A stretch of DNA of 64,000 bases from Dehalococcoidia bacterium (GTDB lineage: Bacteria; Chloroflexota; Dehalococcoidia; Lucifugimonadales; UBA3495), in contig CBDAVT010000001.1 of assembly GCA_965201145.1 (NCBI GenBank), forward strand, positions 70,889 through 134,888, given 5' to 3'. Numbering within the stretch: the first letter of the stretch is position 1; every line of letters starts with the position of its first letter. Both the position numbers and the translations under genes were made by a program. Shown piece by piece: positions 6,495 through 53,138 of this stretch. The notes under the pieces were generated by a model. That model had not been told where the DNA came from. It saw only the letters and a list, made by a program, of their open reading frames with translations, and searched no databases.

Positions 6495-6529
6495 CCCCTC
6501 TCCTTGTGGGAGAGGGGCCGGGGTGAGGG
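6495..6529 (+). repeat. REP-like palindromic element (CCCCTCTCC-N5-GGAGAGGGG-CCGGGGTGAGGG)
   Basis: Hairpin followed by a G-rich tail, 3' of the Mo-oxidoreductase gene. Same family as the copies at 9045-9346 and 50406-50678. Confidence 0.8.
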
Positions 6530-6686: not shown

Positions 6687-8884
6687 ATGGAAAAGTTTCC
6701 CAAATTCACCAACTTGTGGCCCCGGCTGCTGGGCATCGGGGTCCTGGCTTTAGCCCTGCTGCTCTTTTCTACTGTTGCGGTGGCAAACGTCACCCTGGCT
6801 CAGGACGGGGGCGGAACGCAGGAAGAAGAGGAGGCGCCCACCTGTCCGGTGGAGGGAGGCAGCCTGGAATGTGACCGGCAAGCCCTCATCGCCTTTTATA
6901 ATGCGACCGACGGCGATAATTGATGCAACAACGAAGGGTGGAAGGACGATGAAGGCAACTTCAACCCAATCGACAAGTGGCACTGGAATACCGTTTCTTT
7001 CAACAGTCGCGACCGGGTTGACTGGATCAACATGGCGAATGGTCAAGGCTGTGATTCCAAGACCGGGAACAACCTGAACGGTACCCTGATCGACGAGTTA
7101 GGCTGGCTGAATAACGTAAAAACTTTCCACGTTTACGGCAACCCGAAGCTGACCGGCTCGCTCCCGGTAGGAATGAGCAGCATGGGCGCCATGGGGAATA
7201 TGTCTCTGCAGCATAACGGTCTCAGCGGCAGCATTCCCGAGAAATGGAGTGATATGCAGTGGTTGCATGAAATCGAACTCTTTAATATGGGATTGACCGG
7301 CGCTTGGCCCTCGGAATGGGACGATCTGCATCAATTGTGGGTACTCAAAGTTCACGGGAATCAATTGACCGGCAACCCCTTCAGCGAAGACCACGTGATG
7401 GATAATCTGTTTCTAGTGCAGGTCCATGCCAACAAATTCAGCGGCGAGATGCCCAATTGGCTGGGCAAGAAAGCTGCCAACGGCGAACTTTATATGCTTC
7501 ACTGGTACAGCAATGACGGCTTGTGCGCGCCCGATAACACCGACTAGCGCACCGCCCTGCTTCAACCGAAGTGGAAGATAAACGGCCCGATGTGCCCGCT
7601 GCCGGGTGTCGCCCAATCCGGCACCTCCAAGCCATCGGAAACCAAGACGGTTACCACCAAATGGCCCGACGAGACGGCTTTGGAGGTCGTTCTTTCCGTG
7701 TCCACGGACAAGAAGCCTACTTATGACCACGCCGACACCCAGACTAAAAATCCCGGCGTTACTATTACCGCGGCGCCGGAGCTTTCCGACATCGGCAAAT
7801 ATGGCGGAACCCGCACCCTCACCTTTTCCCGCACCGGACACAAGGACATCAAGGTTCACTGGCGCACCTCGGGAGAGTACGACACCACTGACAAGTACGG
7901 AATTTCCATTTCCATCGAAGACTTGAACCTTGCGCCGGATCCGACGCCGACGCCCACGGGTACGCCCACGCCGACAGCTACGGCCACACCGACGCCGACG
8001 GATACGCCAACGGCTACGGCTACTGCTACGCCGGCCCCGACAGACACCCCAACGCCGGCCCCAACGGATACACCCACGCCTACGGCGACCTCAACGCCGG
8101 CCCCAACGGATACGCCCACTCCCACCTCGGCGCCGAATAATCCGGCGGAGTTGATTAGCCCCTTCAGCGACATCGAGTTGTATCATGGCGCTACCAGCGA
8201 CCTGGATATGACCAGCCACTTCAGCGGCGACGGTCTGTCCTACGAAGTGATGGTTACTACCACCCACCAGGGTACCGGCGCGGTGAAGACGGGACTGCTG
8301 AACCAGGTGGCCGTCACAAGGTCACCGGTACCTGGAGCGGAAGCGTCCTGACCCTGCTCGGGGGCCCGGCGGCGCTGCAGGAGTTGACCCTGAAAATCAC
8401 CGCCACCGACCAGAACGGCGGCTCCGCCAGCGACTCCTTTACCCTGGCCCTGGTTGCCGAGCCAACGCCTACCCCGGCGCCGACGTCCACGCCACCGCCG
8501 ACAAGCACACCGACGTCCACACCGCCGCCAACGAGCACACCGACGTCCACTCCGAGTAACCCGGTAAACTTGATTAAGGCTTTCGAAGACATCGAGCTGT
8601 CCGAGGATGACACTAGCCAACTGGATATGACCGACCACTTCAGCGGCAGCTCCCTGACCTATGAGGTGATGGTGACCACGACGCACCAGCGTACCGGGGA
8701 GGTAAGGAGCGGCCTCATCAACACGGTGGCCCGGAACAAGGTCTCCGGCAGTTGGAGCGGCCAGGTTCTGACCCTGACCGGCGGCCCGGCCGTATCCCAG
8801 AATTTGACCATCAAGATAACCGCATCCAACGCTAATGGAAACTCGGCCAGCGACGAGTTCACTATGGCCCTGGACAACGACTAA
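6687..8884 (+). pseudogene. secreted LRR / PT-linker / tandem Ig(cadherin)-like-domain surface protein, disrupted
   Basis: One frame runs 6687-8351 with in-frame TGA (6921-6923) and TAG (7545-7547). A 1-nt loss in a C-run near 8311 shifts into the frame ending at 8884. It has a signal peptide, LRRs (NxLxGxxP), Pro/Thr linkers and two ~105-aa C-terminal domains. Confidence 0.75.
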
Positions 8885-9044: not shown

Positions 9045-9346
9045 CCCTCCTTCTCTCTCAGGGAGAGGGGCCGAGGGTGAGGGCTGTACTGGGGATAGAC
9101 CCTTCTACTTGTCAGCACCTTCCTTCGCAAGGTAGGAAACTGGCGGCCAGCACCCCAACCATCCCAACATCCCCCCGCTCCCCCAGGGAGAGGGGCCGGG
9201 GGTGAGGGCCAGCGGGCGACTCAACAACCATCCCAATACCTCCCCGCTCCCCCAGGGAGAGGGGCCGGGGGTGAGGGCCAGCGGGCGACTCAACAACCAT
9301 CCCAATACCTCCCCGCTCCCCCAGGGAGAGGGGCCGGGGGTGAGGG
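9045..9346 (+). repeat. array of four REP-like elements, including a 69-bp tandem repeat
   Basis: Cores end at 9083, 9208, 9277 and 9346. The 69-bp unit CCAGCGGGCGACTCAACAACCATCCCAATACC...GGTGAGGG is repeated from about 9209. The array lies between convergent genes. Confidence 0.85.
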
Positions 9347-9367
9347 CCAGCGGCCGGGCAAAAAAAT

Positions 9368-9435: not shown

Positions 9436-11697
9436 TCAACCGGAGTTGTCCAGGGTAAATGTGAACTCGTCGCTGGCCTCCCCGCCGTACTGGTCGGTGG
9501 CGGTGATTTCGACGGTCAGCTCCTGGGAGGCTGCCGGGCCGCCAGTCAAGGTCAGGACGCTGCCATTCCACTCACCGGACACCTTGTTGCGGGCCACCGT
9601 GTTGATGAGCCCGCTCTTGACCACCCCGGTAATCTGGTGCGTCGTCGTCACCATCACCTCATAAGTCAGACCGTCGCCGCTGAAATGGGCCGCCATATCC
9701 AGGTTGACGGTCTCACCTCCCGACAGTTCAACATCGTCGAAGTCGCTGATCAGCTCCGCCGGGTTCTGCGGCGTCGGCTCCGGGGTGGGTTCCGGGGTCG
9801 GGGTCGGCGTCGCCGTCGGTTCCGGCGTCGGCATTAGCGTAGGCACTGGTGTTGGTTCCGGCGTCGGTGTGGACGTCGGTTCCGGGGTTGGCGTAATGGT
9901 CGGCTCCGGCGTCGGCATTAGCGTAGGCACTGGTGTTGGTTCCGGCGTCGGCTCCGGGGTGGGTTCCGGCGTCGCCGTCGGCTCCGGCGTCGGTGTGGAC
10001 GTCGGTTCCGGGGTTGGCGTAGTGGTCGGCGTCGGTGTGGACGTCGGCTCCGGCGTCGCCGTCGGCTCCGGTGTTGGTACGGTTGTAGGTTCCGGCGTCG
10101 CCGTTGGCGTCGCCGTCGGCTCTGGCGTTGGTACGGTTGTAGGTTCCGGCGTCGCCGTTGGCGCGGTCGTCGGGGCCGGCGTTGGCGTGCTGGTGGGACC
10201 CGGCTTTGGCGTTGGCGGCGGCAGAGGCGCGGCAACCAGCGTCAGCAGGAAGGAGTCGCTGACCAGGCTCCCGGATTCGTCGGTGGCGATAATCTTCAGA
10301 GTCAGTTCCTGCAACGGAGCCGGCCCTCCCTTAAGGGTCAACGTCGCGTCATTCCAGGAACCCGTTACCTTGTTGGTAGCTATCGTATTGAGCGCGTCGG
10401 TCTTCACCTCTCCGGTTCGCTGGTGCGTCGTCGTTACTATCGCCTTGTAGGTCAGCCCGTCGCCGCTGAAATGCTCCGTCATATCCAGTTCGATAGTTTC
10501 GCCGTCATAGAGCTCAATATCGTCAAACTCGGCGATGAGTTTCAGGGTAGGCGCCTGAGGCGTGCCGACGATGGTGTTGGACCAGTCGCCGCCGGGCTGC
10601 CCCGCCGCCAGCATACGCACCCGGAAGGAGTAGGCCATGCCGTTGGTCAACCCATCAATGGAAGTTTCCATGCTTTGCACGGTCTGCGAACCGCCGTCAG
10701 CCCAGGTCTCACCTTCCACCGTGTACCCCACTTCGTAAACCGTTGGAGGCGCCGGCGCAGGAGCCGTTGGAGCCGGCGCATTATTACTGCTGGCGAAGCT
10801 ACGAATGTTGGCGGCCGCACTCTTCAGGGACACCAGGCTCTTGAGGGAAGCGCCCTCGCCCTCGGCTCCGCTCTCTTCAGGCGCTTCCCAGGACAGCGTA
10901 ACCTTGCCGTTGCCCGGAGCAATACCCAGCCCGGTAGGGGGCGCGCCGAAGCCGACCAGATTTGGGGAAACCGTATTAGAGCTGGCAGCCCAGTAATCCG
11001 TCCCGTCGCAGCGCGCGCCGACTTCCACGTCATAGGCGGCGCCGCTGGTCAACCCATCGATTGTGTGCGGGGAAGTGGCAGCGTCGATTGTCGTCCACGA
11101 GGACGAGCCGGATTCCCGGTAGCGCACCTTATGCTGCGCCGCGCCGCCGACATCGGTCCAGGTGACCGTCAGCTCGCCCGCATTCGAGCCCGTCGCCACG
11201 GACACGCCGGTAGGCTGCGCCGACTTGCCGGTCGTTCCCTCGATGAAGTTGGAGTACCCGGTCAAATTCTTGCCGCCAACCGAAGAGATGCCGCCAAGGA
11301 TGATGAGATACTTCGTGTTAGGCGCCAGATTTGTCATGTCGTCCGGGCTGGTAGGCGAGAAATTTTGCCCGGTCTCAATCAAGCCCAGTTCGTCGATCAC
11401 GTGTGCACTAATATCGGTCAGGGTCTTGCCCGCAGGATTTGTCCAGCTGACTTCGAAACCGCACGCGTAGGTGTTTGCGATCTGGATACTCTCCGGGCCT
11501 GGGGCCGGGGTGATCAAATGGCTCGCCGCCCACACGTAATACTGGCTGCCGTCTGCTGCGGTCAAGCTTGCCGAACCGATCTGCACCTGGTAGTTGGTTC
11601 CATTGATCAAGCCGGTCGCCCGGTAGTTGTCGATACTCGACGTGGTCACAATTGTCCAGGCGCCGTCTTTCGCAGTGGTGTCTATACGGTAGCGCAC
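9436..11697 (-). CDS. giant FN3-repeat surface protein, C-terminal part (frame-shifted continuation of 11682..13916)
   Basis: The 753-aa ORF holds FN3 repeats (Y.VRYR...W...T), an Ig/cadherin-like domain, a ~155-aa PT(E) linker and a second Ig-like domain. Upstream of the annotated start the frame still reads [19 protein letters not shown], which is the middle of an FN3 repeat. Confidence 0.85.
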
Positions 11698-13916
11698 TGC
11701 GCTTTCAGCGAAGCCCTTGCCGGGGGTCCAGCGCGCATTGAACCGCCGTCGGTGTGGAAGAGAATCACATCCGTCGGCTTCCCGAAGGGCTTGCCGTCCA
11801 CTGGTCCCTCGATCTTTGGAGACTGCCGCCCGGCGACGGAGTACACCCGCACCTCGTAATCGATGCCGTTTTCCAGATTATTGATGTACAGGTCGATTTC
11901 CGGGCTGATTTCGTATGTGATCCACTCCTGCGTGTTCTTCTTTCGATACTGAACCGTGCTGCGCAGGGTCCCGCTGCCGTGTTTGTAACTGACGTACAGA
12001 CGGCCATCGCGGGGCTCGACGATTAGGCCCGTCGGCGCATTGAAGGGCGTCACCAAAATCTTGTCGGGCGTCCAGTGCGTTTCTATCGGCGGGCCGTTGT
12101 ACACTGCGGCGACATCGATCCAGTACGTCGTTCCGTTGGTCAGACCGGTGATCGTATAGGTCTGCTCAGTCCCGGCAGCCGGGGCGACCGTCGCTGTACG
12201 AGGGGTGTTGGTGGGGGCGCTCTCGTGATTCCACCAGCGCACCGTGTAGGAGTTCACCGTATCCGTGCTCTCCGGACTCTGCCATTTCAGCACAATTTCG
12301 GCATCTCCCGACACGCCGCGCAGGTTTCGGGGAGATTTTGCCGTGGCTGCCGATACCGTAATAACCTCGGAGCCGCGGTGATAATCAGCCGGCGGCTCTG
12401 AGTCGGCATCTCTGAACAGAGCAAACACCCGAACTTCATGGTTCTCGTTGGGCAGCAAATCACCTATTTCGAACATCAATCGATCGGCATTGCCGGCAAC
12501 CGGCTTCGCTTCTGTGCCCACTGACGTCCATGGCTCTGGGTTGTCCGGGTCATCCGCTATCTCTCGAATGATCAATTTGTAGCCATCGGCGTCATCTACC
12601 TTGTCCCAGGACACCGTAAGGTCTGCCGTCTCAGCGTCCGAAGTGGCTGCGATCAGCGACGCTGTGATTTCGGTAGGAGCCGGCGCGACCTGGAAATCAG
12701 GGCCATCGACCCAGCGCGTCGTCCCAGCGCGGACAGCGCCTACCTGCAGTTCATATTCATCGAGTACCGACAGCCCTTCCAGCTCATACGGGGTCGATCC
12801 GTAAGCTTGCCGCCATGCGCCGTTCGAGGACTTCAGGCGATACCTGATTGTATGGCTTGTGACGCCATCGCCTTTAGTCCAGCGCACGGTCAACTTGCCG
12901 TTGTCGGCTTGTGTTGTTATGTCCTCGAGCTGCACATTCGCGGGCTTCCCCAGCGGCGTCCCGATACGCGGACTTGTCCACAGGATTTCGCCGTTGAGCA
13001 TAGCGCCGACTTGTACCTGATACGTGGTGCCGTTGCTCAAACCTTCGATGTAGTGCCGCCGGCTGACGTCTTCGATTCTGATGTTTTCAAAGATTCCCCC
13101 CAGAGGGCGGTATTCGAGGACGTGGGACACCAATTCACCGGGCGCATTGGTCCAATAGACCTTCAATTTGCGGTCGGCGGAGACCACATCAAGGCCGCTC
13201 GGCGGCTCGAAGGGTATCGCTTCTATCTGCTCGGACCAGTGGGTCATTGCCGGGGTGGGCGGCGACGCGCTCGTATCTTCGTCGAACACCGCGCCCACCT
13301 GCACGGCATGAGTAAGGTGATTGTCCAGGACGGACAGCGTGTCGCGGCTGCTCATCGCCTGGCCCTCCGCATTGGGCTTCCACTCAAAGGGATTTTCCGG
13401 CGCCGACTGGCGGTACCGCACCACATACGAATCGGCGTTGGTCACGGCGGTCCAGCTCACCCGCAGGCTGCCGGAGCTGTTGGGAGTAACGGTGACGCCG
13501 GTGGGAGCATTAGGCGAAAGGGGAGTGGCATAGGTCGTCCCCACAATCTCCCCGCCATTCACAAAGGCACGGACCGTTATCTTGTACGTCCGTCCGTTGA
13601 CGAGAGAGGAAATAGTATGTGGCATCGTGAGGGTATCCACCGGGTTTTCCGGGAGATGGGTGACCGAGCCGTCTATCGTATCGGTATAGGTGATGCCGTA
13701 GCGGGTTTCGCTGGTCCCTTTCGGCCAGCTCCAGTTTACTTCGAGGGCAGTATCACCCGGGGTAGCGGTGACCGCGGACTGCTCCTGGGGGTGCGCCTGC
13801 CGGGACCAGGAAAGGAGCACCGTCTCCAGATGCCCGGCCAACAGCGCCGTAGGCACCATCGCAGTTGCCAGAACCGCCAGGATCAACCAGGAACGCAGCC
13901 TGTTTCTCATATCCAA
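11682..13916 (-). CDS. giant FN3-repeat surface protein, N-terminal part with signal peptide
   Basis: 744-aa ORF with GGAGG 9 nt upstream of the ATG and an N-terminal signal/TM segment. It carries at least 7 FN3-like repeats. It ends in out-of-frame sequence after a 1-nt loss in a T-run near 11741. Confidence 0.85.
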
Positions 13917-23690: not shown

Positions 23691-25187
23691 TTACAAGGCT
23701 CGCAACTCAGCCAAGGCATCCTGAAGCTCCCGGTTATTTTTCTCGATCAAGTCAAGAATCTCCGACGGGGTCCTGGTGTCAACAATTTCCTTGCGGTTGG
23801 GGTTGACCGCCTTCAGGTCATAATTCTTTGCCTCTATTTCCTCCCGAGTGACGGTCCAACTATTTTCACTGTCTTCGCGACCAGGCAGCAGCCTAAAGAA
23901 GTCGTCAAAATGGGCTCGAGTCAGGGGATTCCCCTTGTTGACTTTCAGGTAGGAAAGGTCGTAGTACCAGACCTGCTCAGTTTTCTTGCCCTTGTTGAAG
24001 AAGAGCAAATTGGTTTTTACCCCGGCGCCGGCCTGAGTGAAAACTCCCCCGGGCAAGCTGACAATGCAGTAGAGGTCACATTCGTCCAGCAACCAACGCT
24101 TGGTCTGAACAAAAGCGTTTTCATTAGTTCTGAAAAGCAGTCCCTCGTCAACTACTATCCCGGCCCGTCCGCCGAACTTCAGGCTGTTTATTACTTCCTG
24201 CAGGAAAAGTATCTGGGTAGAGGAGGTCTTATAAGTATATTTTACCCGGGCTTCGCTCCCTTCTTTACTTCCAAAGGGCGGATTCATCATTATCACGTCG
24301 AAGATGTTAGGCGCGCCCTGGTACAATCCCCCGTAGATTTCGTTATCGGTCAGAGTGTTGCCGTGCCAAATATTGGGCCGGTTTATGCCATTCAGCATCA
24401 GATTGGCCAGAACAATGGGAGAGAGCAGGTTCTCTTTTTCCTTACCGTAGAAGGTTTCGGTAGCCAATTGTGCCAATTGCTCGCCGGTAGCGTTGAGACC
24501 CAAGCCGTCTCTCATAAAGTGATACGATTGAGCCAGGAATCCCCCGGTGCCACAGGCGGGATCGAAGACCGTCTCACCCAATCGGGGCTTGACGGTTTCT
24601 ACAATTACCTTAATTACATCTCGTGGAGTGAAGAACTGCCCACCATCGTTGTTCTTCTCTCCCATCTTGAGGAGAAGCCCTTCGTAGGCGTGAGAAAGAG
24701 TGGAATTCTGGGTTATCTCTGCACCGGACAGTTTTATAGAGCTAACGGCATCCAAGACATCCAGAAATTTACGCTCAGTATCGACTTGGACCCGCTCTAC
24801 AATGGACAATATTTCGCCGATAACTTTCTGCCTGACTGTAGCGTCATCCCTTTCCCTAAGGACTCGTAGCCGTGGGAGCAGTTCGTTGTTTACGAAATTG
24901 AACAATTCGCCAAGAGAGCCGGCTTCCAGTTCCTGTCGTTTCTGGCCTTCTTTCGACGCCCAGTCTTGCCAGCGGTAGGGGTATCGCAGAGAAGGACTGA
25001 AGGCGCGGCCCAGTATTTCCGATTCCTCTGCTTCCAGCGCTTCTTGCTGGTCCAGAATATTCAAAAAGAGAAGCCAGGTCAGTTCAGGAATGTACTTCAT
25101 GGCCCCGGCACAGTTAGAGCGCCGCAAGATGTCGCAAATACCCTTAATCTGTGCCGCTATGGACACTGGCGCAGTTGAGGTAGTCAT
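23691..25187 (-). CDS. hsdM: type I restriction-modification system methyltransferase subunit
   Basis: HsdM N-terminal domain (LTWLLFLNILD), motif I (FDPACGTGGFL) and motif IV (NPPFG) are present. The ATG overlaps the hsdS stop (TGATG). Confidence 0.92.
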   Translation of the reverse strand: MTTSTAPVSIAAQIKGICDILRRSNCAGAMKYIPELTWLLFLNILDQQEALEAEESEILGRAFSPSLRYPYRWQDWASKEGQKRQELEAGSLGELFNFVNNELLPRLRVLRERDDATVRQKVIGEILSIVERVQVDTERKFLDVLDAVSSIKLSGAEITQNSTLSHAYEGLLLKMGEKNNDGGQFFTPRDVIKVIVETVKPRLGETVFDPACGTGGFLAQSYHFMRDGLGLNATGEQLAQLATETFYGKEKENLLSPIVLANLMLNGINRPNIWHGNTLTDNEIYGGLYQGAPNIFDVIMMNPPFGSKEGSEARVKYTYKTSSTQILFLQEVINSLKFGGRAGIVVDEGLLFRTNENAFVQTKRWLLDECDLYCIVSLPGGVFTQAGAGVKTNLLFFNKGKKTEQVWYYDLSYLKVNKGNPLTRAHFDDFFRLLPGREDSENSWTVTREEIEAKNYDLKAVNPNRKEIVDTRTPSEILDLIEKNNRELQDALAELRAL

Positions 25188-26377
25188 CAAAAATCTCCCG
25201 AAAAGGCTTGCCGCAACAATATTGACCGCAGGACTTCCAAGTCCCCAATTTGATGATGAGCCAGCATTTCAATCTCCCCAACAGTGGCCGCCTTGCGGTC
25301 CAGATTGGCTACAATACGCTGCTGCTCGGCCAGAGGTGCGAGGGGTATCATAAATGACTTTAGTTGTTTGCCGGTTATGGCATCAAATGTGCTGCCTGAC
25401 CCTTTTTCTGCTATGCTATCTTCAAGGAAACGAAGAGCGACAAGCAAGAAATCCTTATCGACATCGCCACTACACTTTATCGCGGCCAGTCCTCGACCGA
25501 TGCAACACTTTTCCACTGCAACGTTAGTAGGACCAACCGGCGCCCTTACAGAAATCAACACATCTCCCGGATCAGCAATTTTTTGGGGTGATATGCACCA
25601 AGCTGTGACCGTCGGATTGTATTCACCAAAGTCTGCTTTCCCTTGAAAAAATGGAAGCCCTTCCGGCTGGTTTCTGTAAGTGGAACTTGGTGGTGATTGT
25701 CCAAGAATTATTTGGCATACCTCCCCCAGCTTAACCCACTTCCAGCCCTGCGGGAGCTGCTGCCCTAAAGAGGGCAGCAGCTCCCGCGTGATCGCGCTTT
25801 TAGAGAACTAATGTTCGCAATTGCTTCTTCAGCAGCCCGTCGAGCTTTATCCACTAACGCCATTTGCTGGTCCAGCCTGGCTACAATACGCTGCTGCTCG
25901 GCCAGGGGTGGGAGGGGGATGGCTAAATTTGACATTGACCTAAAATTCAAAGTCCTGCCCTTTACAGCATGTCCTAAGACACCTTCATAGTCTATTACAG
26001 GCAATAGGTGCTTTAAGAATTCTTTGTCAGTTCGGCTTTCGTCAATCGGTATTAGACCTGCAATCGCTTCGTTGGTGTAGAGATCACAACCTGCAATAGC
26101 TGTCTTGCCGATAGTCAGCTTAAAGCTAAAGATAAGTGTTCCCTCTTCAAGTAGCCTTTGTTTGCACAGATCGGCACCTTCATCCGAGAGCATTTCTTTT
26201 GTATCTATTATGACATTGGACTTCATATCAGAAATGGTCACCCATGGGTGGTCGCCACCCCAATATTCCAATTTGTTTCTACTAGGTGTTCGCCCTATCA
26301 CAATCCGACAAACATCCCCCAGCTTAACCCCACTTCCAGCCGGGAGGCAGGGGTTTGTTGGTATCGGGCAAGGTCAT
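25187..26377 (-). pseudogene. hsdS: type I R-M specificity subunit, two frameshifts
   Basis: MTLPDTNKPLPPGWKW, then an extra G in the run at 26328-26331. TRD1 and LPPLAEQQRIV follow, then an A missing from the run at 25798-25801. After that come LPQGWKWVKLGEV, TRD2 and LAPLAEQQRIV...AFSGDF. The track ORFs 25765..26301 and 25187..25561 are fragments of this gene. Confidence 0.85.
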
Positions 26378-26451
26378 CGGGAGACATCCTTTGCATTAAC
26401 GTTATAGTAGGAGGACGGAGGTTGTCGCGTAGTGAAATCGGAGCAGTAAAA

Positions 26452-26730
26452 TTAGTCCGACTCACGCCAGAGATGCGGCTTTTCGGAGAGCCGTCCTATA
26501 TTGGCAATCGTAATTACATCTTCCTGGACCGTAAAGATTATCCAATGAAACAAATCTCGGTAAAGCTTACCTACCAGCGGAGGCATATCAAAAGGCACAA
26601 TTGCCGGATCGTCGGGAGCCAGGTAATGAGTGTCGGCTAACCAAACAATGTCATTGATAAGCTTGCTTCTGACGTTATTCGGCTGGGTATCCAAAAATTT
26701 TTTGCTAGAACTGGCAAACCGGATGTCCAT
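26452..26730 (-). CDS. RelE/ParE-like toxin
   Basis: 92-aa ORF starting immediately after the Panacea-domain gene stop. LVGKLYRDLFHWIIFTVQEDVITIANIG resembles the RelE/ParE C-terminal beta-strands. Confidence 0.6.
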   Translation of the reverse strand: MDIRFASSSKKFLDTQPNNVRSKLINDIVWLADTHYLAPDDPAIVPFDMPPLVGKLYRDLFHWIIFTVQEDVITIANIGRLSEKPHLWRESD

Positions 26731-27261
26731 CTAGCAGAGCCCATACTCTTTTTTGATTTGTTCCAGGGACCAGGTTCCCTGCTCCTCCAAGTCTCTATGA
26801 TACATCCGGGACTCCGCTTCCGTCGCGCCCATTGCCGGCAAAGATTGTTCCATCTGCAGCCGGTCGTACGGTCGAGCGCCCTCGAAAGGAGCCGTTTCTT
26901 TACTCACCGCCGTGATTTCTTCCACGGAGAGCTTCCCGTACCGGTGAACGACATCGCTCAAAACCATTTGGACCCGGGCGGGCAAGGCGGGAATTGGCGT
27001 ATCCGGTTCCAAGCTGAAATATCTGCTGCCATACCCACTCTTTCGCTCACTGAGCAGAGGCTCCGCCGCAGCAATGATACCATGCTTTATTGCATTAGGC
27101 CCGAAGCGATCCCAGTGATACTCAAAGCCGGTAACCGTTTCACCAAAATGCTGAAAATGGACATAGTCAACCAAATACACCAGTTTGACCAGCTGCATCG
27201 CTTGAACCTGGACACCTAGTTCCGCCATTATATTTAGAATTACATCATTGGCATTATTCAT
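26731..27261 (-). CDS. Panacea (DUF4065, SocA-like) domain antitoxin
   Basis: LVKLVYLVDYVHFQHFGETVTGFEYHWDRFGPN matches the DUF4065 core. The start is ATG 27261 (the track ORF begins at TTG 27273). Confidence 0.75.
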   Translation of the reverse strand: MNNANDVILNIMAELGVQVQAMQLVKLVYLVDYVHFQHFGETVTGFEYHWDRFGPNAIKHGIIAAAEPLLSERKSGYGSRYFSLEPDTPIPALPARVQMVLSDVVHRYGKLSVEEITAVSKETAPFEGARPYDRLQMEQSLPAMGATEAESRMYHRDLEEQGTWSLEQIKKEYGLC

Positions 27262-27450
27262 ACTGCCCCCCAAGCATTGACCAAACCGGTCCCCCTGGAG
27301 TGATCCGGGGGATGTCGTATAGGATGCCCATCAATATTACCATACGAATAACCGGCGTACCTAGAACTTCAGGTAGCGGTATTTCAACCGCCGTGAGATC
27401 TCCACAAATTCCAAAATAACTTTAGGCCGGCTGTCCAGGGAGAAATTTCA

Positions 27451-29298
27451 TCACGCCGAAAACATCCTCCGCTTGGTTTCGGTCATAGCCTCTGCCGGGT
27501 TTCCGAACTCCCACAAGGAAGCGACGCCGCCGGCTAGAGTTACCTCAGGGGTCTGGAATATTTGCGGACTTTCCAAACCTTCCGTGCCGCCCCTGGTGAA
27601 CTGGGAAGTAATGGCTTGGATGACTGCTGCCGTTGCCGCCGGCAGATTATTGAGCCAATCCCGGTTCTTATAAGCAAAGGCTTCGGCTCGGGCTTCCCTG
27701 GTTTTTGCCGCCTGCCCATAGGCCAGGTCAGCCAGCACATCGAACAGGTCGCAGTCTTCCATATCGGAAAACTCCCGAATCAAGTTAGCGCCGGCCTCGG
27801 GCAGATTTTCCAGCACTTCGCGCCGCGCCGCGGGCTGGATCCAGGCAGCCCGAAACTGGTCCAACACCGGTATATCCGCCACCAGACGGGCAGCCAGCCG
27901 CTGTTTATACTCTTCCAGCGTAACCATTACCTGCTGTCCGGCAGCGTCCATTTCCGTGATATAAGCGCCGGCCGAAGATATGCGAACGTCGAACCCGTGG
28001 GCCACTACCAGAGTTTCCGGCTCACGGGGAGAAGTACCATCAGCATCGGTGTCTGAATTACCTTCGGGCCGGAAAGCCTGGATGAAGTCTTCGGCAAATA
28101 GTCGGGTAGCATTAGTGTAGTCATACACTCGGAAGGAGAGCTTGTTGATACGTTCGTCAATCCGGGTGCCTCTGCCCACCATCTGGTAAAAGGCGATGGG
28201 AGAGCTGACGTACTTAAAGAACACTATATTCACCACCGGAGGGACATCCACTCCGGTGGTCAGCAAGTCAACGGTGGTGGCAATAAAGTAGCGCTGGCTG
28301 CTGCTCTTAAAGTCGGCAATCAGACCCTGGCCCTCACTGGCCGCAGTGCACTTGAAGGCATAGCTCTCAACCCTGGTTTGACCATTGGCCTGACACCATT
28401 GGGTATATAGATTGTTCATTTCATTAGCTACGGCGTCGGCATGCTGGTCGCGGATGCAAAAGATAATGGTTTTCTGATGGGGAGTTATTTCGTCCTGCAC
28501 CAAATGGTTGAACAAGTCCTGACACATAGCTTCTATACGGTCCGGGAGCATGAGCCTGGCCTCAAAGCTTTGGGCATTATAATGCTCCCTGACTACCTGC
28601 GGCTCCACCGCTTGGCCGGTAAGTTGATCCGTAAGGGCCTTATTCTCCAAATCGGCACGGTCAACGCCGGTGACACTTTCCGGGGCCGGCTGATCATCAA
28701 GAAATACATCCCGTTTGATTATTTCCATAGCCGCCAGGTAACCGTCTTCTATGCCACGGCCGATGGAGTACTCGTAAATCGGTTCACCAAAATATTTGTA
28801 GTTGTCGTTAGTTATCCGTTGGTCTTCCCTGCTCTCCGGCGTGGGTTTGACATAGTGAAAGGTTCGCGGGGTTGCCGTAAGACCGATTTGCACCGCATTG
28901 GGATTGCGGCGCAAAACATCGTGCCACTTACCCCAGGCAGAGCGGTGGCACTCGTCAATTATGATATGGCTGAAGTAATCAAAGGGATAGTTGGCGGTCA
29001 GGAATGAATCATTAGCATCATCTCGATCTACACCAAGGGTCTGGTAAGTGGCAATGATGATGCGGGCGTTCTTTTGCGGGTTGCCCGCGCTGGCCGCCGC
29101 CGCATTATTGCCAAACTCATTGCTGAAAGCGCTTAATCCCTGGGTCCGCAGCTCATCCCGGTCACACAAGAACAATGCTTTGCGAAGCTGGCCGGCGTCA
29201 GCAATCCGCTTCAGCAGGTTCACCGCAATAAAGGTCTTGCCCGAACCGGTAGCTAAACTGATTAAGGCGCGGTTTTCGCCACGAGCTATCTTTTCCAA
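27451..29298 (-). CDS. hsdR: type I restriction enzyme R subunit, helicase and C-terminal part
   Basis: Walker A ATGSGKT, DEAH box (IIIDECHRS), helicase C motifs and an EcoEI_R_C-like tail are present. Upstream the frame continues as RYYQDAAIRAVLEKIA. Confidence 0.88.
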   Translation of the reverse strand: MEKIARGENRALISLATGSGKTFIAVNLLKRIADAGQLRKALFLCDRDELRTQGLSAFSNEFGNNAAAASAGNPQKNARIIIATYQTLGVDRDDANDSFLTANYPFDYFSHIIIDECHRSAWGKWHDVLRRNPNAVQIGLTATPRTFHYVKPTPESREDQRITNDNYKYFGEPIYEYSIGRGIEDGYLAAMEIIKRDVFLDDQPAPESVTGVDRADLENKALTDQLTGQAVEPQVVREHYNAQSFEARLMLPDRIEAMCQDLFNHLVQDEITPHQKTIIFCIRDQHADAVANEMNNLYTQWCQANGQTRVESYAFKCTAASEGQGLIADFKSSSQRYFIATTVDLLTTGVDVPPVVNIVFFKYVSSPIAFYQMVGRGTRIDERINKLSFRVYDYTNATRLFAEDFIQAFRPEGNSDTDADGTSPREPETLVVAHGFDVRISSAGAYITEMDAAGQQVMVTLEEYKQRLAARLVADIPVLDQFRAAWIQPAARREVLENLPEAGANLIREFSDMEDCDLFDVLADLAYGQAAKTREARAEAFAYKNRDWLNNLPAATAAVIQAITSQFTRGGTEGLESPQIFQTPEVTLAGGVASLWEFGNPAEAMTETKRRMFSA

Positions 29299-29822
29299 TA
29301 CCGCACGAATAGCGGCATCCTGATAGTAACGGCGTGCCGTTCACCCTTGGAATAAGGTGTGACCAAGGGCTTGGCTTCAGTGGAATCCAGTTTGAACCCC
29401 CGCTTTTGTTCATAGCGAACTTGCAATTCCGAGGGGGACGGAAACTCGGACATAGGTCGAGGGTTGGTAGTCAAGCCGGTAAATTGGTCATATTCCACAA
29501 ACTGGTGACCGTTAGAGGAATATACGAAAGGAGTATTCAGGCGGTCGGCGTATCCTTTTGCTTGCTCCAGACCAAATCCAGGGGGATTATCTTCAGACTT
29601 GGCCTCTACCAGAGCCACAGCCACAGGCTGCTTTCCCGCTTCAGACACAACCCGCAACGTATAGTCAACTCGTTTGTTACGGCGACGAGCTCTACCACCA
29701 ACGATTTCAATCTTACCTGCAGTTTCTTCACGCTTAATCAGGTTCTCCGTCCAACCTCGCGCGTGAAGAGCAGGATCGATTAGCTTCGCTCGCGTATCTG
29801 ATTCGTTAAAAGGCATATCCAC
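29286..29822 (-). CDS. hsdR: type I restriction enzyme R subunit, N-terminal nuclease (HSDR_N) part
   Basis: PD-(D/E)xK region (VDYTL...ALVEAKS). It is joined to the helicase part by a 1-nt loss in a C-run (plus-strand GG at 29351-29352). Confidence 0.85.
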   Translation of the reverse strand: MDMPFNESDTRAKLIDPALHARGWTENLIKREETAGKIEIVGGRARRRNKRVDYTLRVVSEAGKQPVAVALVEAKSEDNPPGFGLEQAKGYADRLNTPFVYSSNGHQFVEYDQFTGLTTNPRPMSEFPSPSELQVRYEQKRGFKLDSTEAKPLVTPYSKGERHAVTIRMPLFVRYWKR

Positions 29823-46468: not shown

Positions 46469-47755
46469 ATGAACCAGACCAGGTCCCAACAGCTATTTGC
46501 CCAGGCTCAACAGTACATTCCCGGCGGCGTCAACAGTCCGGTACGCTCCTTCCGTGCCGTAACCGGAATCCCACCCTTTATCGACCGGGGCAGTGGCTCC
46601 CGGGTGTGGGACGTGGACGGAAATGAGTACATCGACTACCTGGGATCCTGGGGGCCGCTGGTTCTGGGCCACGCCCACCCGGCGGTGGTGGAAGCCCTGA
46701 CCCGAGCCGCTCAAGGCGGGACCAGCTTTGGCGCGCCGGTGGAACTGGAGGTGGAGCTGGCGCGTACAATCTGCGCAGCCCTGCCCTCGGTGGACAGTGT
46801 ACGCCTGGTTAGTTCCGGTACTGAAGCCTGTATGAGCGCCATCCGGCTGGCCCGAGCCAGCACCGGTCGAAGCAAGATTATCAAGTTCTCCGGCTGCTAT
46901 CACGGCCACGCGGACGGGCTGCTGGTCCGGGCCGGTTCGGGCGCAATGACTCACGGCATCCCTACCAGCGCCGGGGTACCCGAGTCCTATGCCGCCGAAA
47001 CTCTGGTGGCGGACTACAACGACATTGCCTCGGTCGAGGCGTGCTTTGCAGCCTGGCCCGAGGCTATCGCCGGCGTCATCGTCGAGCCGGTAGCCGGCAA
47101 CATGGGAGTAGTGCCGCCGGCAGAAGGATTCCTGCAATCCCTGCGGCGCTTGACTGCCGATAACGGCGCCATGCTCATATTTGACGAAGTGATAACCGGT
47201 TTCCGGATAGCCTATGGCGGAGCCCAGACTTTCTACGATGTAACTCCGGACATTACTTGTCTGGGGAAGATAATCGGCGGCGGCTTGCCGGTGGGAGCCT
47301 ACGGGGGAAGGCGCGAAATTATGGAAGTGGTCGCGCCGTTGGGCCCGATGTATCAGGCCGGAACCCTTTCCGGGAATCCCCTGGCCGTTACTGCCGGGCT
47401 CACAACTTTGACCGAGCTGCAAAAGGAGGGAACTTACCAGCGTCTGGAGTCTTTAGCCGGGCGGTTGGCGGCCGGCCTTACCCAGGCATTCGCCAATGCC
47501 GAGATTCCGGCCACCCTTAACCGGGTGGGTTCAATGATGACCGGGTTCATCAACGCCGGCCCGGTGGCCGGGTTAACCCAGGTGGAACAGTCAAATACCG
47601 AAGTCTATGGCCGTTACTTCCATGCTATGCTGGAACGGGGAGTGTATCTGGCTCCTTCCCAATTCGAGGCCGGTTTCGTTTCCCTGGCGCATACCGAAGA
47701 GGATATAGATCGCACCGTAGCAATTGCGGCGGAGGCGCTGGAGAGCCTACGTTAA
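46469..47755 (+). CDS. hemL: glutamate-1-semialdehyde 2,1-aminomutase
   Basis: IPGGVNSPVRSF and the FDEVITGFR motif. I chose the start at ATG 46469 (the track ORF begins at 46352). Confidence 0.93.
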   Translation: MNQTRSQQLFAQAQQYIPGGVNSPVRSFRAVTGIPPFIDRGSGSRVWDVDGNEYIDYLGSWGPLVLGHAHPAVVEALTRAAQGGTSFGAPVELEVELARTICAALPSVDSVRLVSSGTEACMSAIRLARASTGRSKIIKFSGCYHGHADGLLVRAGSGAMTHGIPTSAGVPESYAAETLVADYNDIASVEACFAAWPEAIAGVIVEPVAGNMGVVPPAEGFLQSLRRLTADNGAMLIFDEVITGFRIAYGGAQTFYDVTPDITCLGKIIGGGLPVGAYGGRREIMEVVAPLGPMYQAGTLSGNPLAVTAGLTTLTELQKEGTYQRLESLAGRLAAGLTQAFANAEIPATLNRVGSMMTGFINAGPVAGLTQVEQSNTEVYGRYFHAMLERGVYLAPSQFEAGFVSLAHTEEDIDRTVAIAAEALESLR

Positions 47756-47867
47756 TGCAATGTCAACCTTTGGCGGGCAGCAAATACTTGGTGGCGAGGG
47801 CCTGAAGGGAAGTCTTCGGTATAACGGCGAAATTAGAATATGTGAATCTGAAGAATCAGGATGGAGA

Positions 47868-48374
47868 ATGGCAACCGAATTATCAAATCGACATGCCGAT
47901 TTGAGCCGGCGACTGCTGGAGCAAGCCAATTACGAACTGGATCAGAAAGGGGACCGGGTTCAAGCGTCAGAGAAGGCATCCGGGGCCGTGGCCCAGGCGG
48001 TAAAGGCGATTGCTGAAGACCGGCAGTGGCGCCACAGTTCCCATGCCCTGAGGCGAACGATAGTAAATTTGCTGGTGGCTGAGTTCAATCAGCCGGGATT
48101 AGACTCGGTTCAAGCCATTGCCGACCAGTTGCATAACAACTATTATGAAGACCGGTTGTACGATTGGGAATTGCGGAGTTATTTAGACCAGATAGAGTCC
48201 GGGATTGTATTGTTCTGGGAAATTTGGGAGCGGGGGGCAAACTCCGATTTTGTTCCTTCTCCACCGCAGCAAGCTGCCATTGACCGCCTGCGAATTTCCG
48301 AAGCGGAAGCTGCCACCCAACCACTGCTGGATTATCCACCACCCATGCCGCCCTTTGTTCCACCGGAAAGATAG
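47868..48374 (+). CDS. PaREP1/HEPN-like helical protein
   Basis: QASEKASGAVAQAVKAIAEDRQWRHSSHALR resembles the PaREP1-family core (SEK.WGA...AVKA.A...W...SH). I chose the start at ATG 47868. Confidence 0.5.
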   Translation: MATELSNRHADLSRRLLEQANYELDQKGDRVQASEKASGAVAQAVKAIAEDRQWRHSSHALRRTIVNLLVAEFNQPGLDSVQAIADQLHNNYYEDRLYDWELRSYLDQIESGIVLFWEIWERGANSDFVPSPPQQAAIDRLRISEAEAATQPLLDYPPPMPPFVPPER

Positions 48375-50389: not shown

Positions 50390-50405
50390 GGCGCAAGCCT
50401 CTTGG

Positions 50406-50678
50406 CCCTCACCCCCGGCCCCTCTCCCTGGGGGAGAGGAGAGAGCTTGTTCCTGGGCGTGTTCGCGCATAGTCAGAAATTACATCCTCTGAAAAAGCGG
50501 GAATAGTCAGCGGCTTTCCTCTCCCAAGCAACGTGAAGAAACTACTCTCCCCTCTCCTCGCGGGAGAGGGGCTAGGGGTGAGGACTTCCCAGCACATAGG
50601 TCAGGATTCACCCTCCCCCAAGCAACGTGAAGAAACTACTCTCCCCTCTCCTCGCGGGAGAGGGGCCGGGGGTGAGGG
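50406..50678. repeat. cluster of three REP-like elements (one inverted) with a ~100-bp tandem duplication
   Basis: Cores lie at 50406-50440 (reverse), 50549-50583 and 50643-50678. The unit ...CAAGCAACGTGAAGAAACTACTCTCCCCTCTCCTCGCGGGAGAGGGGC... is duplicated. Confidence 0.85.
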
Positions 50679-50719
50679 CTTCCCCGACACATACTTGACC
50701 GCAGGGGGATAGAAAAGGT

Positions 50720-50793: not shown

Positions 50794-52545
50794 CTAGTTC
50801 TTCAGGGACAGGGTGAAGGAGCCACTGGCTTCCTCCCCAGCCGCGTTGCTGGCGATTATCTGGATGGTCAGATCCTGGGAGGCTGCCTTGCCACCCTCCA
50901 ACGTCAGCACCGACCCGTTCCAGCTTCCCGACACCTTGTTGCGGGCAATCTCACCCAGCTTGCCGGTCTTCTGCCTCCCGGTCTTCTGGTGGGTGGTGGT
51001 TACCATCACTTCGTAGGTCAGGTTGTCGCCGCTGAAGTGATTAGCCATGTCCAGGTCGCTGGTCTCCCCCTGGCTGAGTTCGATGTCCCCGAAGGGGTTG
51101 CTCAGCGCTGGCCTTTCCGGCGCGGGTTCCGGAGTAGGTTCCGGCGTGGGCTCGGGAGTCGGCTCCGGAGTGGGTTCCGGGGTCGGCTCCGGCGTCGGTT
51201 CCGGGGTAGGTTCCGGGGTCGGCGCCGCCGTGCCGCCCACGGTCAGTTGGAAGGAGTCGCTGGCCGATTCGCCGGCGCCATCGGTGGCGATGACTTCCAC
51301 CTGCAGGACGTGGTCGCCCTTAGCCCCGGCGGTCAGGGTCAGGACTTCGCCGTCCCACTCGCCCCGCACCTTGTTCCGAGCCACCTCGTTCAGGTTCCCA
51401 ATCTTCACCACCCCGGTCCGCTTGTGGGTAGTAGTTACCTTCACCTGGTAGGTCAGCCCCTCGCCGCTGAAATGCTCCGCCATGTCCAGGGACTGCTCTC
51501 CGCTATTCTCCAGGGTCAGGTCGGCGAACTCCTGAATCAACTCCGTCGGTTCGGTCAGCCCGAACACCTGCCCCACCGGGTAATGGTTCAGCCGGATCGA
51601 GAATCCCCGCCGGTCGTCCCAGACCCCGTACAGGGTCTGCATCCCGTACCCTTCCCGGTAGAACATCATTTTGGCCCGATGTTCCCAGACATTGCCGCCC
51701 GTGCTGTAGGCCGCGTCCGAATGGGCGCTGATGCTGGCCGGGTCCACCGTGACCTTGCCATCGGCATAGGTCAGGGTCATCGAAACTTCCCCACCGGCCC
51801 AGTCATAACTCAAGGTCTCGGTAGTGGGCTTGTAGTCAATCTCGTAGTAGATGCCGTAGTCGGCATCGTAGTACCAGTTCAGGGTCATGCCGTTCTGACC
51901 CGGCCGGTGGAACTCCAGCGACCGCCAGTTCTCGTACCGGTCCAGCCAGCCGCTGTCGTGGTACTCTACCGTCGTTTCCGCCGCTACCGCGCTGTCGTGG
52001 GTCAGGTTGTTGTAGGTCAGCTTGTTGTCGTCGTCCAGGTGCAGGTCCACGTTGATGTGCTTCCCGTCGCTCCACTCCAGCAAGGCGCTGGTGGACGTGA
52101 TGGGCGTGTCCGTCTGGGAAGTGGGCGGGTTCGGGTTCCGCTGCTCATCGCAGTACAGGCCCCAGTGGATGTTCCAGGTGCACTCGAAGAGGGCGTCCCC
52201 GTAGCCCGGCCGCTCGAACCGGATGTAGTTGAAGGTCGTCGCTCCGTTGCGGTGCACCCGGTACCGGAAGGTGGCTTCCGTGTCTTCCCCGTGGCTGATG
52301 CTCTGCGAGGCCAGCTCCGAATGCCGCATCCCATCGTGGTAGAACCGGAAGGAGAACTCCTCCCCATCGCCCCACTGGCCAGTTACCGTCTTGTTGGCAT
52401 CCTGCCGCTGAATCTGGTAGTACAGTCCCGCTTCCGTGTCGTAGTACACCGTCAGGTAGATGGGTCGTAGTTCCCCTGGTCGTACTGCTTCTTCACCACG
52501 ATGGTCTCGAAGGTCGAGTCCTCCATGTAGGAGAAGAACACCCAC
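50794..52545 (-). CDS. secreted repeat protein, C-terminal part (W-x-D-G repeat modules, Ig-like domain, PTE linker, Ig-like domain)
   Basis: 583-aa ORF. Its first ~27 residues are out-of-frame read-through. The true frame joins 52452..53138 at a 1-nt loss in a C-run (plus-strand GGG at 52462-52464). Confidence 0.85.
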   Translation of the reverse strand: MGVLLLHGGLDLRDHRGEEAVRPGELRPIYLTVYYDTEAGLYYQIQRQDANKTVTGQWGDGEEFSFRFYHDGMRHSELASQSISHGEDTEATFRYRVHRNGATTFNYIRFERPGYGDALFECTWNIHWGLYCDEQRNPNPPTSQTDTPITSTSALLEWSDGKHINVDLHLDDDNKLTYNNLTHDSAVAAETTVEYHDSGWLDRYENWRSLEFHRPGQNGMTLNWYYDADYGIYYEIDYKPTTETLSYDWAGGEVSMTLTYADGKVTVDPASISAHSDAAYSTGGNVWEHRAKMMFYREGYGMQTLYGVWDDRRGFSIRLNHYPVGQVFGLTEPTELIQEFADLTLENSGEQSLDMAEHFSGEGLTYQVKVTTTHKRTGVVKIGNLNEVARNKVRGEWDGEVLTLTAGAKGDHVLQVEVIATDGAGESASDSFQLTVGGTAAPTPEPTPEPTPEPTPEPTPEPTPEPTPEPTPEPAPERPALSNPFGDIELSQGETSDLDMANHFSGDNLTYEVMVTTTHQKTGRQKTGKLGEIARNKVSGSWNGSVLTLEGGKAASQDLTIQIIASNAAGEEASGSFTLSLKN

Positions 52546-53138
52546 TGAATCCGCGCGCTGGTGTTCCGAATCGACTCCCGGGCCGCGTCCACGTCAATCT
52601 CCGGGTTCCCGTTCTGCTGGGACACCGGCACCACCAGCTTGGTCCCTTCCAGCCATTCCAGGTCCAGCTCAATCACCGCCGATTCCTGGGGGCCCTTCAC
52701 GCCCGCCGGCGGGTCCGGGTTCCGGTAGGCCACGTAGTTCCGCTGTTCCGGGTAGCCGGCCCACCACTTGATCCACATATCGCCGAAACCGGCCCGCCGG
52801 AAGGTCATGCTCTTCTGGTCGAAATCGCAGCAGTAATCGGCGATCTTGACCGTGGTGTCTGCCCCGTGGACCAGACTGTCCGGGTCATAGGTGGGTTTGC
52901 CGTCCACCCGGGTCAGGGTCACGGAAACTTCCTCGCCGTCGCTCCACTGCAGGGCCACCGTTTCGGTGAGGTCCGATTCGGAGGCGGCGCCGATGGCGGA
53001 GTCCAGGGTCGTGGTGGTCGTGGGGGTGGCGTCGGCCCGGGCCGGGCTGGCGAAGGCCAGGCCGAAGAGGAGGGCCAAAGCGAGGAGGGCGCCGGCGATG
53101 CTGGCCGGGATGAGCCCTTTGCGGTTGAGGTGCAACAT
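52452..53138 (-). CDS. secreted repeat protein, N-terminal part with signal peptide
   Basis: 228-aa ORF with a signal peptide (ALLALALLFGLAFASPARA), then W-x-D-G...F-R-R-x-G-F-G repeat modules. Confidence 0.8.
   Translation of the reverse strand: MLHLNRKGLIPASIAGALLALALLFGLAFASPARADATPTTTTTLDSAIGAASESDLTETVALQWSDGEEVSVTLTRVDGKPTYDPDSLVHGADTTVKIADYCCDFDQKSMTFRRAGFGDMWIKWWAGYPEQRNYVAYRNPDPPAGVKGPQESAVIELDLEWLEGTKLVVPVSQQNGNPEIDVDAARESIRNTSARIQWVFFSYMEDSTFETIVVKKQYDQGNYDPST

Follow-up and report, generated by a model that had tools for sequence, protein, structure and literature searches.

A cadherin-like domain that closes unrelated surface-protein genes in bacteria that appear to inhabit marine sponges

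Results

Three genes of the window end in paired copies of one domain

We analysed a 64 kb stretch of the genome of a Dehalococcoidia bacterium (contig CBDAVT010000001.1), referred to below as the window, in whose numbering all coordinates are given. Three of its genes, coding for a protein with leucine-rich repeats (LRR), a protein with an FN3 array and a protein with W-x-D-G repeats, end in the same module, built from a domain of about 108 residues. A six-frame motif search of the window found exactly six copies of this domain, which are paired at the 3′ ends of the three genes in the order domain, Pro/Thr linker, domain. A preliminary description of this DNA had placed six copies at three gene ends, and both the search and the alignment agree with it in coordinates and in motifs.

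Taking the copy B2 (see below) as reference, the six copies are 55–70% identical over 106–110 aligned residues, with 35 invariant columns. These include F-x-D, LDM-x2-HFSG, VTTTH, TG, A-x-x-KV-x-G-x-W, LTL-x-G and an ending of the form ...S..F. In the LRR gene, the first copy, A1, occupies 8139–8464 on the plus strand and was located by motif search; it belongs to the internal (I) subtype defined below. A 31-residue linker read from the translation (8465–8557, plus strand) joins it to A2 (8558–8881, plus strand), a copy of the terminal (T) subtype that ends in FTMALDND followed by a stop codon. In the FN3 gene, B1 (10225–10554, minus strand; internal, I-like; ending SFLLTLV) is separated by a translated linker of 153 residues (9766–10224, minus strand) from the T copy B2 (9439–9765, minus strand), which ends in FTFTLDNSG and the stop codon. 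In the W-x-D-G gene, C1 (51226–51552, minus strand; ending SFQLTVG) is of a third subtype, Q, and has its nearest relatives in Longimicrobiales and Vicinamibacterales metagenome-assembled genomes (MAGs). It is followed by a Pro/Glu/Thr linker of 37 residues (51115–51225, minus strand) and the T copy C2 (50797–51114, minus strand; ending FTLSLKN, then a stop codon). In all terminal copies of the window the stop codon lies 0–2 residues past F-T-x-x-L-[DK]-N.

The carrier genes are damaged

All three carrier genes are eroded pseudogenes, and not the intact giant proteins that had been described. The LRR gene (6687–8884, plus strand) was reconstructed by three-frame translation and a listing of its stop codons to about 731 residues. 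It codes, in order, for a signal peptide, an LRR region with Pfam LRR_1 and LRR_8 matches, a W-x-D-G-type domain, a Pro/Thr linker, an I copy, a linker and a T copy. Its lesions are a TGA at 6921–6923 within a ‘NATDGDN-W-xNNEGW’ motif, where W is expected, a TAG at 7545–7547, and a −1 frameshift at about 8312–8315, where the loss of one base falls in the ARNK motif of A1 (GCC-CGT read as GCCGT). P0039, a relative of similar architecture that is intact, has 1522 residues (P and L numbers denote homologous proteins and loci outside the window). The FN3-array gene (9436–13916, minus strand) starts with a signal peptide and consists of two open reading frames of 744 and 753 residues, about 1,500 in total, divided by a −1 frameshift at about 11739–11742; PF00041 matches it in seven stretches. 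The W-x-D-G-repeat gene (50794–53138, minus strand), also with a signal peptide, was reconstructed to about 777 residues across a −1 frameshift at about 52455–52461, and a Pfam search with its repeat region gave no match. The three frameshifts in the window, each no more than probable when taken singly, all come from the loss of a single base; in two cases the site apparently lies in a short homopolymer run.

Two further domains accompany the module. An FN3 variant with a low-complexity loop (10558–10914, minus strand) stands directly ahead of B1; it usually precedes the first copy in homologues too (seen in P0019, P0020, P0027 and P0039) and has tblastn matches at many loci with 44–49% identity. 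The W-x-D-G-type domain of the LRR protein (7650–7928, plus strand; about 90 residues with the pattern W-x-D-G ... TFSR.G ... W) has no Pfam match and is thus a second uncatalogued domain. It recurs within 50794–53138 (minus strand), and in homologues it accompanies the module, on its C-terminal side in P0034 and P0039 and on its N-terminal side in P0070.

The domain is a divergent cadherin-like fold with a family-specific insertion

An AlphaFold2 model of B2, made from a 13-sequence alignment, is an eight-strand β-sandwich with a mean predicted local distance difference test score (pLDDT) of 95.4. In a Foldseek comparison with the PDB the top match was the juxtamembrane cadherin-like domain of dystroglycan (8uf4 and 8yt8; template modelling (TM) score 0.61–0.63, E 5e-4), a modest match with other generic immunoglobulin (Ig)-like folds close behind. 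Pfam and NCBIfam hold no model for the domain, and PDB sequence searches with it returned nothing significant. The only recurrent Pfam match was He_PIG (PF05345), for which the best of the window copies scored 16.3 bits (E 0.014) against a gathering cut-off of 24; sub-threshold matches were found in eight of 13 members (best E 0.001). An hhalign comparison with the He_PIG repeats of P0051 gave 88.8% probability (E 2.5e-6), over the last 30 columns only. For classical cadherin (PF00028) there was no Pfam match, and of its Ca2+-binding motifs (LDRE, DxD, DxNDN) inspection by eye gave only a partial likeness, L-D-N-(D), where the domain ends.

HMMER, run exhaustively over 1.84 billion representative proteins, gave 928 matches. 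Among the best 150 of these, 53 contained the near full-length domain, and the remainder were giant He_PIG/Big_9/Cadherin_5 repeat proteins aligned only at columns ~60–107. He_PIG/CADG domains share with the module domain an Ig-like β-sandwich of about 100 residues in extracellular repeat proteins and, in the last two strands, the signature (I/V)TATD..G..ASD.F.LTV. They differ from it in that the first ~75 residues of the module domain cannot be aligned by sequence, and in that they form long arrays, whereas the module domain occurs in one to three copies at the protein end, only in MAGs that appear sponge-associated. The stretch between the ‘LTY’ and ‘LTLTGGP’ strands is about 15 residues longer than in He_PIG and contains VTTTHQxTG and ARNKVxGxW. 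The preliminary description had suspected both a dystroglycan-type cadherin-like or He_PIG fold and an insert at TTTHQxTG...ARNKV, and the model, the Foldseek ranking and the He_PIG comparison bear out both. We conclude that the domain is a divergent, uncatalogued subfamily of the cadherin-like Ig superfamily (He_PIG/dystroglycan type) with a family-specific β-hairpin insertion. A literature search returned nothing specific on the domain, nor on pseudogenisation in sponge symbionts.

Three subtypes track the position in the protein

Clustering of 71 distinct copies gave three groups, T, I and Q, which track the position of the copy in the protein and not phylogeny. T copies end in F-T-x-T-L-[DNSE]-N with the stop codon within 0–4 residues. 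I copies have the ending FTLSL[VT], after which come a Pro-rich linker and a T copy. Q copies, to which C1 of the window also belongs, end in [QE]LTVG, prevail in outer-membrane lineages and continue into FN3 domains, an IPTL-CTERM-like tail or a putative outer-membrane barrel. The module is the protein end in 35 of 48 genes, so that it is not mostly internal in homologues. The bipartite form that had been taken as its rule holds for all three genes of the window and is not universal, since homologues carry one, two or three copies. The cassette organisation and the T, I and Q subtypes are newly described here.

T-type cassettes were found in Dehalococcoidia, Acidimicrobiia and Caldilineaceae, all of which are conventionally viewed as lacking an outer membrane. 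Q-type copies with a tail or putative barrel were found in Acidobacteriota, Gemmatimonadota and Proteobacteria. After some Q copies the tail reads VPALP, a hydrophobic stretch and RLRLRKR, and scores 20.3 bits with the IPTL-CTERM model against a cut-off of 20.5. Other Q copies (P0027, P0030, P0038, P0046, P0050, P0058 and P0062) are followed by a helix, ‘LLEDASSAIGGR’, and about 480 residues ending in ...RLxTxF. This region had no sequence match in Pfam (including the autotransporter family PF03797) or in the PDB. Its low-confidence AlphaFold2 model (pLDDT 48) has one long helix and about 20 strands, and its Foldseek matches were all outer-membrane barrels, with low TM scores. Judging from this model, the region is probably an outer-membrane barrel other than a classical type Va autotransporter, and it may be an undescribed kind of barrel anchor. 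In P0008, P0029 and P0066 the domain directly follows an N-terminal hydrophobic segment. Longimicrobiales proteins have an N-terminal lipobox (LLAGC or VLTSC) and a Q–Q pair at the far C-terminal end. At one locus (L046, 6001–8334) the Q-type gene P0010 ends just past the helix expected before the barrel, with an insertion sequence (IS) transposase gene (DDE_Tnp_1) directly downstream, so that IS insertion is another route of inactivation.

This division of architectures is one argument for reading the I–linker–T cassette as a device that holds a secreted protein non-covalently on the envelope of its own producer, in the manner of WxL, GW and SLH domains, in place of the membrane anchors of outer-membrane-bearing relatives. 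T-type lineages are those regarded as without an outer membrane, and Q-type lineages those with the IPTL-CTERM-like tail or the putative β-barrel. Apart from an N-terminal signal peptide that is apparently cleavable, the proteins of the window and intact T-type homologues show no anchor, the Pro/Thr linkers resemble wall-spanning segments, and the domain lies nearest the anchor in barrel and IPTL-like proteins and right after the hydrophobic segment in the three proteins named above. The Gram-positive WxL, GW and SLH domains are likewise C-terminal, free of membrane segments and common to varied surface proteins, but bear no relation to the module domain in sequence or fold. On the other hand, there is no obvious envelope polymer common to Dehalococcoidia, Acidimicrobiia and Caldilineaceae, and the same loops are kept in Q copies that have no anchoring need. 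The domains of the window are acidic (isoelectric points of 4.0–5.2), the Longimicrobiales lipoproteins carry the module at the end far from their lipid anchor, and no partner gene lies nearby. We regard anchoring to the producer's own envelope as rather unlikely.

The preliminary description had also suggested a sorting signal. An Ig-like C-terminal domain that is common to unrelated secreted proteins, is terminal in most of the genes and has a conserved final strand and ending could be read, and perhaps removed, by a dedicated machine, as is the C-terminal domain of the type IX secretion system (T9SS). The latter (Por_Secre_tail, of Bacteroidota) is itself a small β-sandwich of Ig-like type with which unrelated secreted proteins end. 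However, the T9SS models Por_Secre_tail and TIGR04183 gave no match in Pfam or NCBIfam (E up to 1), nor did any other sorting domain there. The domain has no hydrophobic stretch of the kind found in tripartite sorting signals (LPXTG, PEP-CTERM, IPTL-CTERM), T copies ending 0–4 residues past the last β-strand. Unlike the T9SS domain, the module has close relatives at internal and N-terminal positions, and Q-type copies precede separate sorting or anchoring devices. The phyla concerned include some with and some without an outer membrane, which makes a single shared machine unlikely, and none is known to have a T9SS. In the neighbourhoods of the module genes there was no conserved adjoining gene, whether partner, sorting enzyme or other machinery. 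With no confident match to a described anchoring domain either, we consider a sorting signal very improbable.

The module is old, conserved and laterally spread

The module copies of the window are 53–83% identical to those in MAGs assigned to other phyla, and B2 is 83% identical to a copy in one Dehalococcoidia MAG. The LRR and W-x-D-G passenger regions, by comparison, reach only 24–35% identity, even against Dehalococcoidia relatives. As position-specific subtypes cluster together across phyla, the I and T copies have moved as a unit, in agreement with the earlier suggestion of a cassette spread by recombination. For T copies, the ratio of nonsynonymous to synonymous substitution rates (dN/dS) was 0.09–0.5 at a dS of 0.7–2, which is near saturation. 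High dS with low dN/dS indicates that the copies are old and that purifying selection acts on them. The six copies of the window have undergone no recent gene conversion, since their nucleotide identity is 58–74% and the longest exact run 20 nucleotides. T, I and Q copies do not differ in the conservation of the hallmark loops, which are kept alike in proteins with the putative barrel, the IPTL-like tail, the lipobox or no anchor.

These data bear on whether the domain is a stalk unit of the common Ig-like kind without a specific partner, spread laterally and fairly recently as a convenient 3′ cassette. Ig-like repeats often act as stalks, Q copies and FN3 domains form bead-like alternating arrays, genes have anything from one to three copies and many copies are pseudogenised, all of which would suit a passive spacer. 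Nevertheless, the module is conserved two to three times as well as the passengers, and the substitution rates above speak of long-term purifying selection and not of recency. A passive spacer would also leave the position-specific subtypes and the strict conservation of the C-terminal ending across phyla to be accounted for. We hold this explanation to be unlikely.

Relatives occur in MAGs that appear to come from sponges

A peptide-pattern scan of one genome per species, covering 185,579 species, gave 38 loci; it used a single pattern and so sees only the copies that retain that motif. Of these loci, 37 lie in long-read MAGs of one project. The MAGs comprise three Dehalococcoidia, three Acidimicrobiales/Acidimicrobiia, one each of Caldilineaceae, Longimicrobiales and Vicinamibacterales, a gammaproteobacterium and ‘Rhodobacter’ bins, a mix of phyla that we take to be that of a high-microbial-abundance sponge. 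The 38th locus is in the Dadabacteria MAG PNGco_C_bin25. Relatives thus span at least six phyla, with MAGs of Dehalococcoidia, Acidimicrobiia, Caldilineaceae, Gemmatimonadota, Acidobacteriota, Proteobacteria and Dadabacteria. No relative came up when 241 million JGI metagenome records were scanned with the same kind of pattern. JGI metagenome 3300007741, obtained from the sponge Coelocarteria singaporensis (PMC8546597), contains the Q-type copy P0012, and PNGco_C bins appear among sponge Entoporibacteria (PMC7883664); two sources of the module trace to the sponge Coelocarteria. In these searches the domain subfamily was confined to bacteria of at least six phyla that seem to inhabit marine sponges.

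An enrichment of genes with cadherin and FN3 domains in sponge symbionts, and their lateral exchange between these bacteria, has been described (Robbins et al. 2021, PMC8163846). The proteins of that study resemble the present ones in their sponge-symbiont setting, in the cadherin/FN3 class and in lateral transfer among phyla. It counted Pfam-annotated domains (PMC8163846), and since the present subfamily scores below Pfam thresholds, it goes uncounted in surveys of this kind.

Within one Dehalococcoidia MAG (CBDATF01), an I+T module gene and its upstream sequence were found with identical scores at four places (L007, L008, L009 and L010), a sign that a segment of several kb was duplicated recently.

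Lesions in module-bearing genes

Roughly 14–16 of the 48 distinct genes at the fetched loci are damaged inside the module by stops, frame changes or truncations, and one further gene is interrupted by an IS element. Many other homologues are intact over 900–1,570 residues and have N-terminal signal peptides; with these genes, given by the exhaustive search and the genome loci, the notion that every homologue is broken was discarded. A word-indexed protein search had returned only 18 short fragments (58–184 residues), missing long intact homologues of the same genomes and the 753-residue frame of the window itself. The way in which candidates are picked among Pro/Thr-rich proteins may be the cause.

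One homologue, on a circular contig of 3.14 Mb with 61x coverage, has TGA, TAA and TAG in frame in one gene, the TAG replacing an invariant W, and an independent assembly repeats the same three stops (L001 and L002). The recurrence in two assemblies together with the three types of stop excludes both recoding and error for that homologue. Recoding of TGA as W was rejected also because the window has a TAG and frameshifts besides. Assembly error is unlikely as the cause of the window lesions. Ten window genes compared with Pfam, among them hemA, hemC, hemB, hemL, aroB and hsdM, are essentially full length, and the other damaged genes seen, hsdR and hsdS, are accessory. Lesions that spare the housekeeping genes checked point to real mutations and not to assembly noise.

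Other features of the window

A type I restriction-modification island at 23691–29822 has a G+C content of about 50–52%, against about 60% elsewhere, and is partly decayed. Its hsdM (23691–25190) is intact, hsdS is in two fragments (25187–25561 and 25765–26301) and hsdR is split by a frame change (29286–29822 and 27451–29298). The interval between the convergent LRR and FN3 genes holds, at 9156–9353, a 69-bp tandem array (2.9 copies, 97% matches) of a REP-like element with the core GGGAGAGGGGCCGGGGGTGAGGGC. Further, isolated copies are found close to each of the three module genes (9059–9084, 50403–50436, 50656–50679 and 6508–6523), and the core is also present in the Dehalococcoidia MAG loci L019, L023 and L039, and in L011. 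Like the best matches of the module, this shared element suggests a Dehalococcoidia-like origin of the window. At the end of a row of haem-biosynthesis genes, an open reading frame of 216 residues (47724–48374, plus strand) matches archaeal PaREP1/PaREP8 (PF05942, E 1e-11), which is unexpected in a bacterium.

Discussion

We tentatively propose that the module is a laterally spread docking or adhesion unit for a conserved extracellular component of the sponge mesohyl, a reading that we place a little short of probable. The domain would bind one conserved ligand in the mesohyl, either the host matrix or the surface of a neighbouring cell, and the cassette would have moved between at least six phyla, becoming joined to passengers as unrelated as LRR regions, FN3 arrays and W-x-D-G repeats. 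In the lineages regarded as without an outer membrane, a specialised T copy would be held at the extreme C-terminus, behind a Pro/Thr linker. From the predicted strand order, the HFSG, N..ARNK and GGPAxSQ loops and the C-terminal LDN would share one pole of the sandwich. In T copies this conserved pole would be the free end of the protein, and unrelated passengers would thereby gain a common attachment point. A function that does not depend on anchoring, phyla with unlike envelopes and the host as the sole common factor together point to docking or adhesion.

The dockerins of cellulosomal enzymes offer a parallel, as they too are small acidic C-terminal modules that follow a Pro/Thr-rich linker on unrelated passengers, a pattern which implies a common docking partner. 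Their fold is EF-hand-like, whereas that of the module is a β-sandwich.

Several observations weigh against docking or adhesion. The invariant residues could be structural. In proteins with the putative barrel or an IPTL-like tail the domain is the one nearest the anchor, where a stalk would be more expected than an adhesive tip. About one in three modules is damaged, as are all three genes of the window, so that at least some copies are dispensable. Moreover, for the main MAG set (OZ2413xx/CBDAxx) an origin in sponges is deduced from the phylum composition and is undocumented.

A more specific form of the docking proposal, which we consider quite unlikely, is that the conserved pole is a host-recognition tag, a ‘passport’ presented alike by many phyla and bound by sponge cells or matrix. 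If so, symbionts would be kept attached in the mesohyl or spared from being eaten as food bacteria, and lateral transfer of the cassette would be one route to becoming a sponge symbiont.

The surface-protein genes of the module-carrying type turn over fast in these genomes and leave many pseudogenes. How extracellular sponge symbionts of different phyla are attached, and how the host discriminates them from food, are open questions, on which work to date has relied on counting generic ‘eukaryote-like’ domains. The 108-residue domain, missed by standard annotation and confidently modelled, gives a concrete handle on them: once expressed, it could act as a bait for sponge extracts, and it may serve as a genomic marker of sponge association.

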